A stretch of DNA of 61,683 bases from a virus. A program made the translations under genes and the position numbers. The stretch is taken from the IMG/VR virus record IMGVR_UViG_3300045988_126295, positions 1 to 61,683 of that record; one strand, written 5' to 3'. Below are positions 8,055-58,401 of this stretch, piece by piece; the first letter of the stretch is position 1, and every line of letters starts with the position of its first letter. The notes beneath the pieces were generated by a model, which was not told the origin of the DNA, did not search any database, and was given only the letters and a program-made list of their open reading frames with translations.

Positions 8055-9254
8055 TTATTTTTTATTTACGTAATCTATTACCTTCCGATTAGCTTCATCC
8101 ACCTTCTTATTATCAAATCGTATGTATATATCCGTTGTAGTGCTATTTGCCCAACTGTGCCCAAGAGCATGCGCTATTACCTCTTTGGGAATGTCGAGCT
8201 CAGATGCTATTGTGGCCCAAGTATGACGCGTCCAATAAGAGGATAAATCAGGAAACAGAGGAGTTCTTATCTTTTTCCCGCCTAATCCTTTTCGTTCAAG
8301 TTTCCCGATCTGCTTTAGTCCTATCCCCATTCGATGCAGGAAGTCCTTGTAATTCCTGTATTCATCCATTATATTGAGAAGATAGCTTTTCCCTTTATAT
8401 TTTTCTATTATATCCATAGCCTCCGGTTCTACTTTTACGCTGTATAATTTCCCCGTTTTAGCCCTTTTGTATTCAAAGCGACCATTTACCAATGCGGAAT
8501 GTTTTGCGTTAAACAAATCGGCTGCATTTACCCCTATAAGGTAAAACATAAGCATAAATATATCTCTATATCTTATCTGATACTCCTCACATGGGTAATC
8601 TCTTAATAATCTAAGCTGTTCTACTGTGAGGCTGCGTTTCCGGGTTTCCTCTTTTTTTATTGAAAATCTTCTGAATGGATACAATGTCGTGTACTCTTCA
8701 TCAATGGCATAGTTGAATACGGTGCGTATGTTCCGTAAATGAATAGCGTAGGCGTTAACTTTCATCGTCTTTGCCATCCACGCTTCAAAATTTTCAAGCC
8801 ACGATTTATCCATGCTTTCAAACGTACAGCGGCTATCGTATTCTTTAATCTTGTTCCTTGTGGTTGTGTATACGGTCTTGGTACCTTGATTATTCTTTTT
8901 CGACATAAATTCATCAAGATAGTATAAGAATGTCTTTTCGTTTTGGGTCTTATTACTTATGGCTTCTTCGATCATTTTTTTTAATGATGCATCCGTTGTT
9001 GATTTCAACTTACCCTGTTGCTCCAACGTTAATATTACAGTTTCCGCCTTGTTTATTATCCCGCGAGCGACAATGTTTCTTGGTTTATAATTTTGTGCCC
9101 GTACGGAATACTCATTTCCAGCCCACTCTTTATCCGATGCGCTTAATTGTGTAGCTATCATTATTTGTTTATTATGGAACACGTTCAACTTTAGAGGATA
9201 AGTCCCGTCTTTTTTTTGCCTTCTTTTATCAAGGTAGAATTTAACTGTTGCCAT
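8055..9254 (-). CDS. int: Tyrosine site-specific integrase
   Basis: 399 aa. N-terminal arm-binding type VKFYLDKRRQKKDGTYPLKL. C-terminal catalytic TRHTWATIA...HALGH...TTDIYI. Adjacent to attP. Confidence 0.9.
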   Translation of the reverse strand: MATVKFYLDKRRQKKDGTYPLKLNVFHNKQIMIATQLSASDKEWAGNEYSVRAQNYKPRNIVARGIINKAETVILTLEQQGKLKSTTDASLKKMIEEAISNKTQNEKTFLYYLDEFMSKKNNQGTKTVYTTTRNKIKEYDSRCTFESMDKSWLENFEAWMAKTMKVNAYAIHLRNIRTVFNYAIDEEYTTLYPFRRFSIKKEETRKRSLTVEQLRLLRDYPCEEYQIRYRDIFMLMFYLIGVNAADLFNAKHSALVNGRFEYKRAKTGKLYSVKVEPEAMDIIEKYKGKSYLLNIMDEYRNYKDFLHRMGIGLKQIGKLERKGLGGKKIRTPLFPDLSSYWTRHTWATIASELDIPKEVIAHALGHSWANSTTTDIYIRFDNKKVDEANRKVIDYVNKK

Positions 9255-9870: not shown

Positions 9871-10302
9871 TTACGCACTCTTGGTTGAAGCCTTTCTTTC
9901 GCTTAGCCCAAGCTGTTCTCGCATAATTTCGTTCTGCCCTATTAACTTATCTATCTCGGACTTCATTCTCTCTATTTCGGCCTTTAAATTAGCAATCTCC
10001 TTATCCTTACTTGTTATCGTATCCTTGTACATCTTCTGAGATTGCGATGCAATGTTTTCAGATGTGCTCTTTTCTGTGTCAAGAAACATATCCCCCTTTC
10101 CGGTAAGGATGTAGTTGGCGTTGACTTCGGGGTAGGCTTCGCAAAGCTGAACTATTATATCACCAGATATAGCCTTAGTAACCCCTTTTTTGTAATGGGA
10201 TATTTTAGCTTGTGCGTTTTTCACGCCACAATCTCTTTCAAGCACGTATGGCCCAATATTTAGACCTTCCATAACCTCTAAAAATCGTTCACTTGTAGTC
10301 AT
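9871..10302 (-). CDS. Repressor-like HTH DNA-binding protein with C-terminal coiled coil
   Basis: 143 aa from the ATG at 10302 (the track start at 10416 is TTG inside the promoter). HTH-like N-terminal region VKNAQAKISHYKKGVTKAISGDIIVQL. Divergent from the operator-bearing early promoter. Confidence 0.55.
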   Translation of the reverse strand: MTTSERFLEVMEGLNIGPYVLERDCGVKNAQAKISHYKKGVTKAISGDIIVQLCEAYPEVNANYILTGKGDMFLDTEKSTSENIASQSQKMYKDTITSKDKEIANLKAEIERMKSEIDKLIGQNEIMREQLGLSERKASTKSA

Positions 10303-10339
10303 AGTATAATATTTTAAATTATTTATATTCAAAAAAAGT

Positions 10340-10369
10340 TTTGTACTATAAAATATTATAGTATCTTTG
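10340..10369 (+). promoter_or_regulatory. Early promoter with embedded operator: TTTG - ACTATAAAATATTATAGT - TATCTTTG
   Basis: TTTG at 10340..10343, 16-bp near-palindrome core at 10346..10361, -7 box at 10362..10369. Confidence 0.6.
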
Positions 10370-10446
10370 CACCCGTTGCAAGTCAAGAAGCAACAGATGC
10401 AGATTAAATTAAACAATCGCCCTAACGTGGGCCTCTCTATATGGAA

Positions 10447-13214: not shown

Positions 13215-13421
13215 ATGAATGACATTAAAACAGTAGCTGTAAAAAAAATATCTCCGGCAGATACATTGAAGAGTATAAAGGTTGGTGATACGGTGATTAT
13301 AAAGGATAAGCATGTAAAGTCCAATGTGGCCCGATCCACTATATCAAGGTTGTCAAAAAAGGGATACTCTTTTTATTCAAAGAGCTGTCCTGAAGGTTTA
13401 ATAGTAAAAAGACTTCAGTAA
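13215..13421 (+). CDS. Hypothetical protein
   Basis: 68 aa. ATG verified. Close-packed in the operon. Confidence 0.55.
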   Translation: MNDIKTVAVKKISPADTLKSIKVGDTVIIKDKHVKSNVARSTISRLSKKGYSFYSKSCPEGLIVKRLQ

Positions 13422-13433
13422 TATATTATCATT

Positions 13434-13667
13434 ATGAATAACAACGAAGTATTCAAACAGATAGCTGTATTCGCTTTAGGCTTTACAGGATTCTTTTTCC
13501 TTCTCGGAATAGTTGGAAAATCTGATTATAATGAAGAGGTCATATACAATATGACGGAAACGGCTTACAATGTTATTGTAGATTCCCTCGGTGAAGGTTG
13601 CAGCGATACGCAGATCGTGAAGACTTATTTAAGCAACAAAGATTACTACGATAGTTTAAACTGGTAA
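13434..13667 (+). CDS. Hypothetical membrane protein
   Basis: 77 aa with one TM segment (IAVFALGFTGFFFLLGIVG). Confidence 0.55.
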   Translation: MNNNEVFKQIAVFALGFTGFFFLLGIVGKSDYNEEVIYNMTETAYNVIVDSLGEGCSDTQIVKTYLSNKDYYDSLNW

Positions 13668-13670
13668 GGT

Positions 13671-13883
13671 ATGGGACGCTCAAAAAACACCGGAAAGGTA
13701 GAGCCGGTAAACAAACTATGGCTCTCTGCCAAAGAAGCAATGGCATACTTAGGATGTGGAGAAAAACTGTTGGAAAAACTAAGGAATAATGCCGAAATAT
13801 CATTTTCAAAATACGACAGGCGTACTATATGGTACGAACTGAGAAGTCTTGAAAGATTCATAGAAAAAAACCGCGTTGTGTGA
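13671..13883 (+). CDS. Excisionase-type (MerR-like) HTH DNA-binding protein
   Basis: 70 aa. LWLSAKEAMAYLGCGEKLLEKLRNNAEI fits the small phage excisionase / HTH_17 pattern. Confidence 0.55.
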   Translation: MGRSKNTGKVEPVNKLWLSAKEAMAYLGCGEKLLEKLRNNAEISFSKYDRRTIWYELRSLERFIEKNRVV

Positions 13884-13893
13884 ATAACGCTCC

Positions 13894-14006
13894 TTCCTCT
13901 TAGCTCAACGGTTAGAGCATCGCTAAGGTTATTTGTTCGTAAGGGTTTAGCGTTTCCGGTCTGTTCCGGTTAGCGATTGTTGCACGTTCGATTCGTGCAG
14001 AGGAAG
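13894..14006 (+). ncRNA. tRNA-like element with canonical acceptor, D and T arms but a 43-nt insertion where the anticodon loop should be
   Basis: Acceptor TTCCTCT/AGAGGAA (7 bp perfect). TA plus GCTC-AACGGTTA-GAGC. Stem TCGCTAA (13920-26) / TTAGCGA (13970-76). Variable TTGTT. T arm GCACG-TTCGATT-CGTGC. Discriminator G. Confidence 0.6.
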
Positions 14007-14400
14007 CAAGATACACCGTTCTTTGACGTGTTGAATGTGAAACAAAGTTTGAATATCTGATATTCGGATTTGTTTCAATATAACTAAGGATTACGTATAG
14101 CGGAAACGCCGAAACTACGTATAGGCTTGGTTATCGTGATTGTTTCTCGCACCGAAATGTCCTACGGTAGAGAAGTATGCGGTTTGGGCGCCCGTATCGC
14201 GAGAAACAACAGGTCATAAAGACAACATAAGCGTCCGATATAGTCTTAAATCGGTATAAAGTATGCGGTGGGAATGAAAGGCGGCCGTACACGCTTATTA
14301 TATATATTCTCGTGGCTCACCATAAGGCGAGTGGTAAGGCTTAACATCGGAACGCTCACGAGAACTGAATTATCCTATGGATGAATTATTTGTTTAGGTT

Positions 14401-14432
14401 GCCGGGCGGTCTGAGAAGATAGTCCGGTTTTT
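14401..14432 (+). terminator. Intrinsic terminator closing the structured RNA locus
   Basis: CCGGGCGGTCT-GAGA-AGATAGTCCGG hairpin (about 10 pairs, GAGA tetraloop) followed by TTTTT. Confidence 0.55.
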
Positions 14433-14592
14433 AGTTGGAAATCATCAATAACAATATAAATAACCGCAATAAGGTAGTGCTATTACTGTACTAAAAGCCG
14501 CGAGATAAACGAAGTGCGCACCGTTTTGATTTAACCTTGTACAGGCGGTTCAATAGAGAAAATAGTTATTCAATAATAATAGATTACAATAT

Positions 14593-15486
14593 ATGAATTA
14601 CGGAATGCCCTACATGGGTTCAAAATCAAAAATTGCAAAATGGATTGTGGATATGCTTCCTGCGGCCCATACATGGGTTGAACCATTTGCCGGAGGATGT
14701 GCAGTAACTCATGCGGCCATCCTTTCCGGAAAGTATAAAAAATTTATCATTAACGACATAACAGATAGCGCAAAAGTATTCGTTGATGCTATAAATGGTA
14801 AGTTTAAAAACGAAAATAGATGGATAAGCCGAAGCGATTTTTTAGAACTCAAAGATGAAGATGCTTATGTTCGATTGTGTTTTTCTTTCGGTAACGATCA
14901 AAAAACATATTGCTATTCACGAGAAATAGAGCCTTATAAACGTGCATTTCATTATGCAGTTATGTTTAATGATTTTAAGCCGTTTGAGGATCTCGGGATT
15001 AAATTAAATATAAGCAAAACGTTTAACAGTGATTATGAAAGAAGGATTCATATAAAAAGGCATCTTATTGCAATAAGAAAAGACAAACACGCTGGATATT
15101 TGCAGAGTTTGGAGAGGTTGGAGAGGTTGCAGAGGTTGCAGAGTTTGCAGAGTTTGGAGAGGTTGCATCCCCTGCAATTAGATTACAGGGATGTTCCGAT
15201 TCCAAAAAACGATTACATTGTGTATTGCGATCCGCCATACGTGAACACAAATGCTTATCTAAGCAGTTTTAATCACGATGAATTCTACAAATGGGCTTTA
15301 AGTATTAAGAATTTGTTTATTTCCGAATATGAAATGCCCGAACCTTTTAAGAGAATAGAGATGAGGAGGAAGACGTGTACTTTCTCTGCGTTAAAAAATG
15401 ATACGAAGAAAGAGGAAGGTATATGGGTTAACAAAAAATACGCAGAAAGAAACACAAGCCTGTCAATGCCTATTTTCAATAAGTAA
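14593..15486 (+). CDS. dam: DNA adenine methyltransferase (Dam / D12 class)
   Basis: 297 aa. MPYMGSKSKIAKWI, EPFAGGCAV (motif I), YCDPPYVNT (motif IV DPPY). Confidence 0.85.
   Translation: MNYGMPYMGSKSKIAKWIVDMLPAAHTWVEPFAGGCAVTHAAILSGKYKKFIINDITDSAKVFVDAINGKFKNENRWISRSDFLELKDEDAYVRLCFSFGNDQKTYCYSREIEPYKRAFHYAVMFNDFKPFEDLGIKLNISKTFNSDYERRIHIKRHLIAIRKDKHAGYLQSLERLERLQRLQSLQSLERLHPLQLDYRDVPIPKNDYIVYCDPPYVNTNAYLSSFNHDEFYKWALSIKNLFISEYEMPEPFKRIEMRRKTCTFSALKNDTKKEEGIWVNKKYAERNTSLSMPIFNK
15100..15171 (+). repeat. In-frame 9-bp tandem repeat (TTGSAGAGK, 7 units plus 1 degenerate) inside the methylase gene
   Basis: ttgcagagt ttggagagg ttggagagg ttgcagagg ttgcagagt ttgcagagt ttggagagg ttgcatccc encodes LQS LER LER LQR LQS LQS LER LHP. 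Confidence 0.9.
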
Positions 15487-15494
15487 AAAAAATA

Positions 15495-15731
15495 ATGGAA
15501 AATGAACTTGAAGAATTATATAAGGAACTGAACAAAGTTAAGTCCTCCCCATTGGCGTATCTTCCTGAATACGGATATTCTTCAAAGGAGGAAATTATTC
15601 AGCTTATAGAGGAAGATATAGAGGAGTTGCGCACAGAGATAGAATGTAGTCAATACGATTACACACCTGATGAGCTTGAAGAAGAAAGAATGAGCCTTTG
15701 TGTCAGTCAGGGGTTATCAAGATATTGTTAA
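15495..15731 (+). CDS. Hypothetical acidic protein
   Basis: 78 aa, Glu-rich. ATG verified. Confidence 0.55.
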   Translation: MENELEELYKELNKVKSSPLAYLPEYGYSSKEEIIQLIEEDIEELRTEIECSQYDYTPDELEEERMSLCVSQGLSRYC

Positions 15732-56677: not shown

Positions 56678-56808
56678 GCCAATACATATTAATAAGTAGT
56701 ATCGTATAAAATTAAGATATTGCGCCTACCGAGTGGAGATACGGAAACGCCTCCGACATTAATCTTATGGATTTGTTGACAGCTCGTAGTAGGTGCATTT
56801 TTTTTGTT

Positions 56809-57327
56809 ATGTCAACAAATCCTATTCAAGTCCTAAAACAAACAGAATTGCTTGGACATCAATTCACAGTTTACGGAACCGCTGAAAACCCATTATTCTT
56901 AACAAAGGAAGTTGCAGATATAATAGAATATTCTGCAAGCAATTCAAGTAAACTAACCAATCTTGTAGATAGAGACGAAAAGGTTCGTAACATTATTACG
57001 ACCCCCGGTGGAAATCAAGAAGTTTGGCTGCTAACAGAGGACGGTTTGTATGAGGTCTTATTTCAATCCCGAAAGCCAATCGCCAAAGAATTTAAGAAAG
57101 GTGTTAAGGAAATTCTAAAGACCATCCGCAAAACCGGCGGATACATCGCAACCAAACAGGATGACACTCCCGAAGAAATCATGGCACGTGCACTCATAGT
57201 GGCACAGGAAACAATCAAAAGAAAAGAAGAAAGGCTAAAGCAGCTTGAAGAAAAGAACGCCAAGCTAAAGCCCAAAGCCGACTTTGCCGAAGCCGCTTTC
57301 AAAAAAAATATTATTTTCGTTTGGTAA
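56809..57327 (+). CDS. Bro-N domain antirepressor-type protein, truncated at the start of a KilAC-like domain
   Basis: 172 aa from the ATG at 56809. LLGHQFTVYGTAENPLFLTKEVADIIEY...WLLTEDGLYEVLFQSRKPIAKEFKKGVKEIL (Bro-N). Ends ...KPKADFAEAAFKKNIIFVW*. Confidence 0.7.
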   Translation: MSTNPIQVLKQTELLGHQFTVYGTAENPLFLTKEVADIIEYSASNSSKLTNLVDRDEKVRNIITTPGGNQEVWLLTEDGLYEVLFQSRKPIAKEFKKGVKEILKTIRKTGGYIATKQDDTPEEIMARALIVAQETIKRKEERLKQLEEKNAKLKPKADFAEAAFKKNIIFVW

Positions 57328-57350: not shown

Positions 57351-57531
57351 CAGTGCGACAGTTTTATATACATATTTGGATTGGGGATTTTTTATGCCCT
57401 ATATTGAACTACTGCCCAAAATATAAGCAGAGGTTTCTCCGTACATATTCGCCCCAAGCCGATATGGAACTGTCGCAAGTTGGAGAAATTCTCTGCTTTC
57501 TTTATTTATTAACTTTTAATTTTCATTGTTT

Positions 57532-58401
57532 ATGCGACAGTTGAATGAAAATTACTCAAACAGCAATAACATTGCTGTATTAAGTACGTCCACTCACGAA
57601 ACGAGTAAAACTTTCTCCTACAATGGCAACGAGGTACTTTTTGACATCAAAGACGATGTTATGGTTAACGCCACACAGCTTGCTAAAATCTACGGGAAGC
57701 GTCCCAATGATTATTTGTCCTTACCTGCTACAAATCAATTAATTAACGCCATTACAAGAAAATATGGTATTGCTGAAAATCAATTAGTTAGAACAGAAAG
57801 AGGTGGAATAGCTCCCGGTACTTGGATGCACAGATTAATAGTAGTTGATTTCTGCCAATGGTTAGACATTGATTTGAAACTGTGGTGTACTGAAAAACTC
57901 GATGAATTGATGCGATACGGCATGACCGCCACTCAGCCGACTTTGGAACAGATGATAAACAACCCCGACCTTGTTATCAGCCTTGCCACACAATTAAAGA
58001 ACGAACGTGAGGAAAAGGCAAGATTAGAACAAGAGAAGAAGCGTCTTGAAGATAAAACTGCCAGACAGGAACCTTTGGTGTCATTCGCCGAATCCGCTTT
58101 CAAAGCAGAGGGCAAAGTAGACATAGGCCAAGCCGCAAAGATTCTCAACCTCGGTTTCGGGAGAAACACCCTTTTCAAGAAGCTAAAGGAAGTGGGCGTA
58201 TTTTTTAAAGACAGGAACGAACCGAAACAAAAGTACATTGACGCCGGGTATTTTGAAATGACGCTGTTACCGCCTATACACAGAGACAGTCACCCCGACA
58301 TATTATATCAAAAGGTACTTTGTAAGCCCAAAGGACTTGCTTACATTAATTATTTATTCGGTGGAAAGCCTTCTGACGGGAAAACGGCAAAAATAAAATA
58401 A
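57532..58401 (+). CDS. KilA-N domain plus KilAC domain antirepressor-type protein
   Basis: 289 aa from the ATG at 57532. VMVNATQLAKIYGKRPNDYL...GTWMHRLIVVDFCQWLDIDLKLW (KilA-N). C-terminal SFAESAFKAEGKVDIGQAAKILNLGFGRNTLFKKLKE (KilAC). Confidence 0.7.
   Translation: MRQLNENYSNSNNIAVLSTSTHETSKTFSYNGNEVLFDIKDDVMVNATQLAKIYGKRPNDYLSLPATNQLINAITRKYGIAENQLVRTERGGIAPGTWMHRLIVVDFCQWLDIDLKLWCTEKLDELMRYGMTATQPTLEQMINNPDLVISLATQLKNEREEKARLEQEKKRLEDKTARQEPLVSFAESAFKAEGKVDIGQAAKILNLGFGRNTLFKKLKEVGVFFKDRNEPKQKYIDAGYFEMTLLPPIHRDSHPDILYQKVLCKPKGLAYINYLFGGKPSDGKTAKIK

Follow-up and report, generated by a model that had tools for sequence, protein, structure and literature searches.

Independently folding RNA modules arrayed in the early operon of a temperate phage from the human gut

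Introduction

HK022 put and Bacillus EAR are structured RNAs of approximately 70-120 nucleotides (nt) that lie within an operon, on its coding strand and ahead of intrinsic terminators, and they act in cis with no need for allele-specific pairing. The small stable RNAs species 1 and 2 of the T4 tRNA cluster, the RNase III sites of T7 and the PeSL cassettes of T4-type phages are phage non-coding RNAs or hairpin modules between genes that are co-transcribed with early genes, processed by host RNases and tied to modular gene shuffling. In gammaherpesvirus tRNA-miRNA transcripts, as in engineered "tRNA scaffolds", another RNA is attached to, or borne by, a tRNA-shaped element. Maturation by RNase P has been described both for phage regulatory RNAs such as c4 of P1/P7 and for the tRNA-like handle of MALAT1 (mascRNA) (PMC4919922). 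Here we analyze a gene-free stretch of 0.7 kb (positions 13884-14592) within the rightward early operon of a human-gut temperate phage, IMG/VR record IMGVR_UViG_3300045988_126295, all 61,683 nucleotides of which are referred to below as the window. This stretch is a non-coding part of the operon that encodes a chain of independently folding + strand RNA modules, among them a tRNA-like element and two copies of a three-way junction, and not one large RNA.

Results

Coding potential, strand and local structure

No open reading frame (ORF) of 60 aa or more is present in 13884-14592, as stated in the initial annotation of this DNA, the longest overlapping ORFs being of 53 and 43 aa on the - strand and of 39 aa on the + strand. 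For comparison, more than 200 IMG/VR loci were gathered by Dam protein, then by the motif pattern and then by the T-arm pattern. Coding-like 3-nt periodicity, which the initial annotation had itself named among the observations that would speak against a structured RNA, is absent: the variable sites are distributed over the codon phases as 27/22/19 and five columns contain single-base indels. Given this lack of codon periodicity and the single-base indels, the region is not coding. The modules that can be delineated in it are the following:

13894..14007, + strand: tRNA-like cloverleaf (ARAGORN -i; 26 variants)
14018..14027, + strand: conserved GTTCTTTGAC box at the head of cassette types A, C and E
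14038..14077, + strand: hairpin H1, with 18 bp, a single bulged G and the loop CUG (-14.1 kcal/mol, z = -4.2)
14038-46/14069-77, + strand: outer helix of H1, 9 bp
14080..14134, + strand: composite hairpin H2 (-17.9 kcal/mol, z = -3.1)
14080-88/14126-34 (outer), 14092-97/14116-21 (UACGUA) and inner GCG-GAAA-CGC, + strand: helices of H2
14140..14209, + strand: three-way-junction domain, copy 1
14213..14223, + strand: small linker hairpin of 3 bp, weak and almost invariant
14227..14298, + strand: three-way-junction domain, copy 2
14306..14364, + strand: module C, an 8-bp closing helix (14307-14/14357-64) around a variable hairpin and conserved UAAGGC...CAUCGGAACGCU
14401..14432, + strand: module D, an intrinsic terminator with a GNRA hairpin and U5 (-16.1 kcal/mol, z = -3.2)
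14462..14551, + strand: module E, a conserved leader with AACCGC/GCGGUU and CUGUAC/GUACAG helices around invariant GUACUAAAAGCC

Folding of 14007-14440 as a whole, compared with shuffled sequences, gives z = -2.7. In the alignment of 41 distinct sequences with a type A cassette (the types are defined below), 98.6% of the cells in the 87 proposed pairs are paired, against 32-43% when the partners are slid; read as the - strand, the same pairs reach 90.3%, and the G.U pairs favor the + strand. All helices proposed in the initial annotation were located as inverted repeats in the sequence and are backed by compensatory substitutions, the only adjustment being that the helix given there as 6 bp (14229-34/14291-96) actually comprises 8 bp (14227-34/14291-98). 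The stretch is non-coding, belongs to the + strand, and is truly structured. All supported helices are local, however, and are confined to modules of at most 110 nt, so that the proposed large multi-domain RNA with a long-range architecture is not borne out.

Tests against known RNA families

The initial annotation had raised the possibility that the locus belongs to the GOLLD or ROOL class. A scan of the whole window with Rfam 15 at the gathering thresholds yielded only c4-2 at 56720 and none in the locus, and a scan of 13800-14700 at E<=10 yielded four spurious matches, all of 19 bits or less, so that nothing credible supports membership in these or other Rfam 15 families. In particular, there is no match in Rfam 15 to the covariance models of GOLLD, ROOL, raiA, HEARO/OMEGA, group I/II introns, RNase P or tmRNA, nor to riboswitch aptamers in 13800-14700, and a run of ARAGORN in tmRNA mode (-m) came up empty. 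To the extent that covariance models allow a verdict, GOLLD, ROOL, tmRNA, RNase P, introns, HEARO, c4 and riboswitch aptamers can be ruled out. A likeness of the locus to domain V of group II introns (GUAUGCG...AUGAAAG...CGUAC) is superficial and has no Rfam match. A riboswitch with an expression platform was rejected because the terminator lies 100 nt from P1 of junction copy 2 and ORFs of 55-291 aa intervene in relatives. The RNA of a type III toxin-antitoxin system or a CRISPR-like array, either of which would consist of tandem direct repeats with a unit of 30-40 nt, was rejected as well: Tandem Repeats Finder reports no repeat at a score of 30 or more, and the two three-way junctions have only an 11-mer in common. 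Literature searches yielded no description of these elements.

Mosaic organization in related phages

The modules recombine independently among more than 150 gut-phage contigs. In contigs that are 99% identical on both flanks, 14014-14300 is swapped for an unrelated sequence of similar length (cassette type B; L002/L005), and in cassette types C and D only the 5' part is replaced. Altogether, 126 loci contain the tRNA-like element; 60 of these have a type A cassette and 43 a type B cassette, with variants of A, C or D making up the remainder. In a second lineage (L193-L200, L210, L219), which shares the three-way junction and the GTTCTTTGAC box as well as modules C, E and D, a plain hairpin takes the place of the tRNA-like element; the box is common to this lineage and to otherwise unrelated cassette 5' parts. 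Conversely, the L008 lineage (L008-L012) has a tRNA-like element without the cassette.

Because related phages combine and order the modules differently, a single fused RNA is not tenable, and the "fusion" of the tRNA-like element to the rest of the locus, as originally described, is just one among several arrangements across lineages. Accordingly, the part of the initial annotation that described a structured non-coding RNA stands, whereas the single large ornate RNA does not. An RNA of the GOLLD/ROOL kind would fit a phage-borne, ORF-free, helix-rich locus of approximately 540 nt beside a tRNA-like element, but with no Rfam match even at E<=10, no supported long-range helix, and modules that occur separately and in other orders, this is the least credible of the explanations considered here.

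Two sites of insertion were observed in the relatives. A hypervariable accessory slot lies between the cassette and modules C/D (L018-L190), at the equivalent of approximately 14300-14306, and holds at least 10 unrelated families of small ORFs, including DUF6948, a sigma-70 region-4 protein (291 aa) and a tyrosine-recombinase-like protein (235 aa); the window has none of these. The second insertion point, between the equivalents of 14455 and 14462 (L002, L019, L065), contains 525-800 bp with an ORF of 170-266 aa that carries GSATVKAY-type tandem repeats.

The three-way-junction motif

The cassette contains two domains of the same architecture with a common AAGUAUGCGG core:

14140-50/14199-209, + strand: copy 1, P1, 11 bp
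14151-54/14165-68, + strand: copy 1, P2, followed by junction AGAGAAGU
14177-82/14192-97, + strand: copy 1, P3, with loop UUUGGGCGC
14227-34/14291-98, + strand: copy 2, P1, 8 bp
14235-39/14250-54, + strand: copy 2, P2, followed by junction UAUAAAGU
14264-68/14285-89, + strand: copy 2, P3, with a 16-nt loop

The 11-mer AAGTATGCGGT, the recurrence of which had been noticed at the outset, is found in the 61.7-kb window at 14173, at 14259 and nowhere else (expected in shuffled sequences, 0.04; 0 of 100 shuffles reach two). Copy 1 folds better than shuffled sequences (z = -2.6), and the pairs of copy 2 are kept at 98.8-100% in the type A alignment. The architecture is found in all cassette types: P1 of 8-11 bp, a P2 hairpin of 4-5 bp, a junction ending in AAGU, P3 (AUGNNG, loop, CNNUAY), an optional C, and finally the strand that closes P1.

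A covariance model built from type A copy 1 alone finds the type B and C domains full-length on the + strand with E values of 1e-4 to 1e-6 and nothing in those Dam relatives from which the locus is missing; the same model failed to detect copy 2. MAFFT could not place the four domain types in structural register, and a covariance-model alignment was used instead. In this cross-type alignment, which is fitted to the model, leans to its structure and hence somewhat inflates the numbers, 13 of the 21 pairs are changed on both sides and 98.6% of the cells are paired (slid controls, 28-54%), and none of 500 shuffles reached the observed values. Type E provides a further exchange, in which P1 is unchanged and P2 is swapped from CAAG/CUUG to ACCG/CGGU. 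While the stems diverge, the junction (AAGUAUG / UAUCGC), the P2 loop AAAU-GUCY and the P3 loop GGYG remain constant. Fixed junction and loops combined with drifting stems point to a fold that is recognized by a conserved partner and is not a specificity determinant of an antisense RNA. The three-way junction of approximately 70 nt is a new, previously uncatalogued motif.

The c4 RNAs and other antisense regulators were considered separately. The models of the c4 clan (CL00128; c4, c4-2, c4-a1b1) do not match 13800-14700 at E<=10, and they do work in this window, where the c4-2 model scores 45.2 bits at 56720-56800. The latter RNA (RF02944; gathering score 41; + strand) overlaps the start of ORF 56767-57327 and lies upstream of ORF 57526-58401. 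Its first-hairpin consensus uAgCgGAAAcGcC resembles the H2 core UAGCGGAAACGCC (14098-14110), although the model does not match H2. No complementary targets of the locus RNA or its loops of at least 10-11 nt were found elsewhere in the window beyond chance, and no 7-8-mer targets near 10-20 kb. Antisense or immunity alleles were rejected, the target matches being at chance level and the loops being kept across cassette types, unlike allele-specific pairing.

The constancy of the junction also bears on a reading in which the RNAs act in trans against the host, that is, the tRNA mimic with its payload and the three-way junctions soak up a host defense protein that targets tRNA or binds RNA early in infection. 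Early expression beside a hypervariable accessory-gene slot, in which 10 or more unrelated families of small ORFs occur much as they do in phage anti-defense islands, would suit such decoys, as would the two motif copies per cassette, the mosaic and fast-evolving cassettes, and a tRNA body that is kept with a disrupted anticodon loop in two lineages. Nevertheless, the loops and the junction are conserved and not diversifying, no known defense or anti-defense gene is linked to the locus, and exact-pattern scans of GTDB representative genomes gave no match. We therefore regard decoys as unlikely.

The tRNA-like element

The stretch opens, as initially noted, with a tRNA-like module, for which ARAGORN with introns allowed gives a full cloverleaf:

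13894-13900/13999-14005, + strand: acceptor stem
13903-13918, + strand: D arm
13920-24/13972-76, + strand: anticodon stem
13926-13963, + strand: insert of 38 nt between positions 31 and 32
13964-13970, + strand: anticodon-loop-like UUCCGGU, directly after the insert
13982-13998, + strand: T arm

The acceptor, D, anticodon and T stems of a canonical tRNA are all present and are recovered in the RNAalifold consensus, but a 7-nt anticodon loop closing a 5-bp stem, findable by standard tools, is not: default ARAGORN reports 0 tRNA genes in the window, and the Rfam tRNA model does not match the element at E<=10. Each of the 26 distinct variants, which represent 126 loci, keeps all four stems and an insert of 35-43 nt, and compensatory changes affect two pairs (U31-A39 to C31-G39, and U2-A71 via U2.G71 to C2-G71). 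The conserved pieces of the insert are GGUUAYUUGUUCG, GUUUAG and a second UCCGGU, with UUCCGGU following it. The elements form three sequence groups, each of which is paired with more than one cassette type, and in all arrangements the element starts 10-15 nt past the stop codon of the preceding ORF. A tmRNA-like tag in the insert was rejected, since its short reading frames, read by eye, vary in length and sequence between the groups.

A different tRNA-like gene, with a T-rich insert of 55-90 nt at the same arm position, lies just upstream of Dam in the L008 lineage, where the Dam proteins are 62-64% identical:

L008:2708-2841 and L011:2780-2915: tRNA-like gene of the L008 lineage, present also in L009, L010 and L012 upstream of Dam

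Against the Rfam tRNA model, this gene reaches 51.6 bits with an insertion of 71 nt; its acceptor stem and T arm are unrelated in sequence to those of the 13894-14007 element. In L008, it is followed by a weak hairpin (-4.3 kcal/mol) with a U tract and then by a module-C-like helix (UCCCGG...CCGGGA). Judged from the sequences of the two lineages, the conserved entity at this position is a tRNA body with a disrupted anticodon loop. Furthermore, L195 and L197 encode a tRNA-Cys(GCA) with a 6-nt "intron" (ARAGORN -i) approximately 250 nt downstream of the three-way junction, just after the terminator homologous to module D; tRNA or tRNA-like genes thus recur beside these modules.

The ARAGORN -i prediction and the canonical-looking loop UUCCGGU, together with the frequency of tRNAs in phages, might suggest a working tRNA-Arg(CCG) gene with a removable intron at 13894-14007, the remainder being untranslated spacer. 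If the insert is removed, however, sequence groups 1 and 2 are left with an anticodon stem of 6 bp. In addition, A20, which by the E. coli identity rules is the principal identity element for ArgRS, is missing from the D loop, and this argues against arginine identity. For these two reasons, we do not regard the element as a decoding tRNA-Arg. Moreover, we know of no bacterial mechanism that removes a 38-nt, non-group-I insert at 31/32, the analogous elements of L008-L011 have no U33 loop, and the supposed spacer downstream is itself under structural selection. A functional tRNA-Arg gene is accordingly very improbable.

The remaining modules

In H1, three pairs are changed on both sides and several G.U pairs are possible on the + strand only; in H2, the pair 14096/14117 changes from U-A to G-C and G.U. 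In one contig (L006:2447-2486, corresponding to 14038-14077 of the window), H1 is present as the exact reverse complement (40/40), the contig being otherwise collinear and 98% identical; the 22 bp enclosed by the 9-bp inverted repeats have been flipped, which produces A.C mismatches in the + strand hairpin. Module C was found in 101 instances in the fetched loci, in relatives usually after the accessory ORFs, and covariation is seen in the helix that closes it (UUCUCGUG/CACGAGAA to UUCCCGUG/CACGGGAA).

The hairpin at 14401-14432, reported in the initial annotation as having a GAGA tetraloop and U5, is a real intrinsic terminator, with a stable GC-rich hairpin and a U tract on the transcribed strand and merely -6.8 kcal/mol on the - strand. 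It is conserved in relatives with loops GAGA, GUGA or GCGA; a simple consensus terminator scan missed it owing to one internal mismatch. Module E (41 distinct variants) contains three covarying helices (CCGC/GCGG to CCAC/GUGG; CUGUAC/GUACAG to CCGUAC/GUACGG; AAACG/CGUUU to AAGCG/CGCUU), and the last 130 nt (14462-14551) can, by sequence comparison, be delineated as a separate leader module. The 3' arm and U tract of the terminator, CGGUUUUUAGU (14425-14435), show 11 nt of complementarity with ACUAAAAGCCG, an invariant part of module E (14490-14500). This pairing was rejected as a functional feature: where the two modules are distant from each other, the tail is not maintained, and the match may be a chance U run facing an A run.

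Under a more modest explanation, the modules are RNA punctuation only, i.e., signals for processing or stability (RNase P, RNase III and RNase E sites, protective hairpins) between cistrons, and recombination linkers, with no dedicated ligand or regulatory role. The 18-bp duplex of H1 has the size of an RNase III substrate, modules C and E and the terminator are located at ORF boundaries and travel with accessory ORFs, and the exchange breakpoints coincide with module edges. This explanation accounts neither for the strict conservation of the unpaired junction and loops across types with fully diverged stems nor for the conserved insert in the tRNA-like element, and we consider it decidedly unlikely.

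The inverted H1 palindrome might also hint at a DNA-level element such as a replication origin, a single-strand initiation site, or an attachment or recombination site. A short AT-rich tract (14296-14306) would be in line with this, as would the gene content, in that none of the early genes (10000-31500) is recognized by PHROGs or Pfam as a replication initiator, helicase or primase, a weak negative, yet RNase H is encoded. Against such an element, the structures are strand-specific with many G.U pairs, iterons and tandem repeats are absent, the GC skew tracks the direction of transcription with no switch at 14 kb, the integrase gene is 5 kb distant, and a cloverleaf and a U-tract terminator are features of RNA, which altogether makes this explanation highly improbable.

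Genomic context

The stretch is flanked by genes of a temperate phage, as follows:

0.3-6.4 kb, - strand: head and packaging genes
8055-9254: integrase
9871-10416: repressor-like gene
13671..13883, + strand: HTH_17/excisionase-like protein, 70 aa (Pfam PF12728, 29 bits; PHROG 66)
14593..15486, + strand: Dam-type DNA methyltransferase (PHROG 56, E = 1e-33), an insertion relative to most related contigs
15495-15731: MENELEEL ORF, 78 aa

The rightward early operon, 3' of the repressor-like gene, encodes RNase H, the HTH_17/excisionase-like protein, the Dam methylase, a RecT-like protein, an exonuclease, Ant and RusA. Only 10 nt separate the end of the HTH_17 gene, at its stop codon, from the start of the tRNA-like element, which leaves no room for a separate promoter, and the Bacteroidota -7 motif (TAnnTTTG) is absent from both strands of 13400-14700. 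Exactly between this gene and the tRNA-like element, the minus strand contains a terminator-like hairpin with a T7 run (13873-13890) that would block antisense transcription entering the early genes from the right. Given that module E directly precedes the MENELEEL ORF, and not Dam, in most relatives, the Dam gene is considered an insertion in the window type; it is missing at the equivalent position in most related contigs (e.g., L001, L019, L028) and resembles a moron in this respect.

The terminase is nearest to those of Flavobacterium phages and the sole GenBank match is from human feces, which suggests that the host is probably a gut member of Bacteroidota. Exact-pattern scans of the GTDB representative genomes gave no match to a host or prophage copy.

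Discussion

A possible role at the early/delayed-early boundary

The junctions lie upstream of a conserved terminator and border early genes, the accessory slot and delayed-early genes; from this position, we tentatively propose that they control read-through or RNA fate at the early/delayed-early boundary, in the manner of a processive-antitermination RNA, with a probability of roughly 0.4. The stretch would be co-transcribed with the upstream early genes, given that the tRNA-like element starts 10-15 nt past a stop codon everywhere and that no Bacteroidota promoter motif is found. RNase P and the enzymes of tRNA 3'-end formation may then cut at the tRNA-like element, which would yield defined ends and a stable tRNA-scaffolded small RNA and would also free the downstream structured RNA, with its 3' end at the terminator (14432). 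The three-way junctions would be bound by a conserved partner, either a protein or RNA polymerase, and could act as ligand-binding RNA domains at the boundary between early and delayed-early genes. Antitermination of the put/EAR type is compatible with their location within an operon, on the coding strand, and upstream of a terminator.

Several observations weigh against this reading. The tRNA-like element is not obligatory for the three-way junction, as the second lineage demonstrates, and the order of the modules varies between lineages, module E preceding the terminator in L195, which disfavors one fixed switch. Diversity inside each cassette type is low (97% mean identity), and most of the covariation comes from a handful of independent types, in an alignment biased toward its own model as mentioned above. 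The loops of P2 and P3 are complementary in every type (UGUCC/GGGCG, CAUCU/AGGUG, GUCUU/AAGGC), such that a pseudoknot is possible; this kissing interaction is no better than that of shuffled loops or non-cognate combinations (p = 0.2-0.65). No partner protein for the three-way junctions is identifiable, and processing sites, RNA stability and expression are all inferred.

A broader conjecture, which appears rather unlikely, is that gut Bacteroidota phages possess an undescribed RNA toolkit. It would consist of natural "tRNA scaffolds", with a payload of 35-90 nt in place of the anticodon loop at the same early-operon position in at least two lineages, and of a class of pseudoknot-capable three-way junctions that bind RNA polymerase or a host factor; jointly, these would constitute a protein-independent early-to-delayed-early switch or an RNA-based anti-defense system. 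Should the present analysis of the locus hold, the structured RNAs described from Bacteroidota phages of the human gut, which are still very few, would gain at least two uncatalogued families, namely the three-way junction and the tRNA-like element that carries an anticodon-arm insert, along with the conserved modules C and E. In that case, the engineered tRNA scaffold would have a natural analog in the tRNA-like element, and the part played in infection by a tRNA body with a non-decoding payload would become a question. We know of no mechanisms of RNA-based control of early transcription in Bacteroidota phages. The three-way junction, with several sequence-divergent but structurally identical versions in more than 150 viral contigs, is well suited for covariation analysis, probing and reporter experiments.

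Comparison with known systems

Like the locus analyzed here, GOLLD and ROOL RNAs are structured, ORF-free and encoded in phages or prophages, often next to tRNA genes. They differ from it in that each forms one large fold, whereas the locus is a string of small autonomous modules without a match to either in sequence or structure. The three-way junction shares with c4 of P1/P7 (CL00128) and the CI RNA of P4 a length of approximately 70-80 nt, a location within an operon transcript, and a closing stem with two hairpins; unlike c4, it escapes the c4 models and keeps its loops constant from type to type instead of varying them by allele, and no complementary target sites were found for it in the window.

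The tRNA-like element resembles the engineered tRNA scaffold, with a payload in place of the anticodon loop. In MALAT1-mascRNA, the gammaherpesvirus transcripts and the engineered scaffolds, tRNA-processing enzymes set the ends and the tRNA body stabilizes the RNA, whereas in the phage element such processing is presumed; furthermore, those systems are eukaryotic, viral or artificial.

The sequences of the T4 and T7 elements are unrelated to the locus, and they have no conserved three-way-junction core. Compared with put and EAR, the locus shows no homology in sequence or architecture, the order of its modules is not fixed, and antitermination is putative. Taken together, the parts of the locus belong to none of the families tested, and they probably resemble known kinds of phage RNA elements in the way they work.

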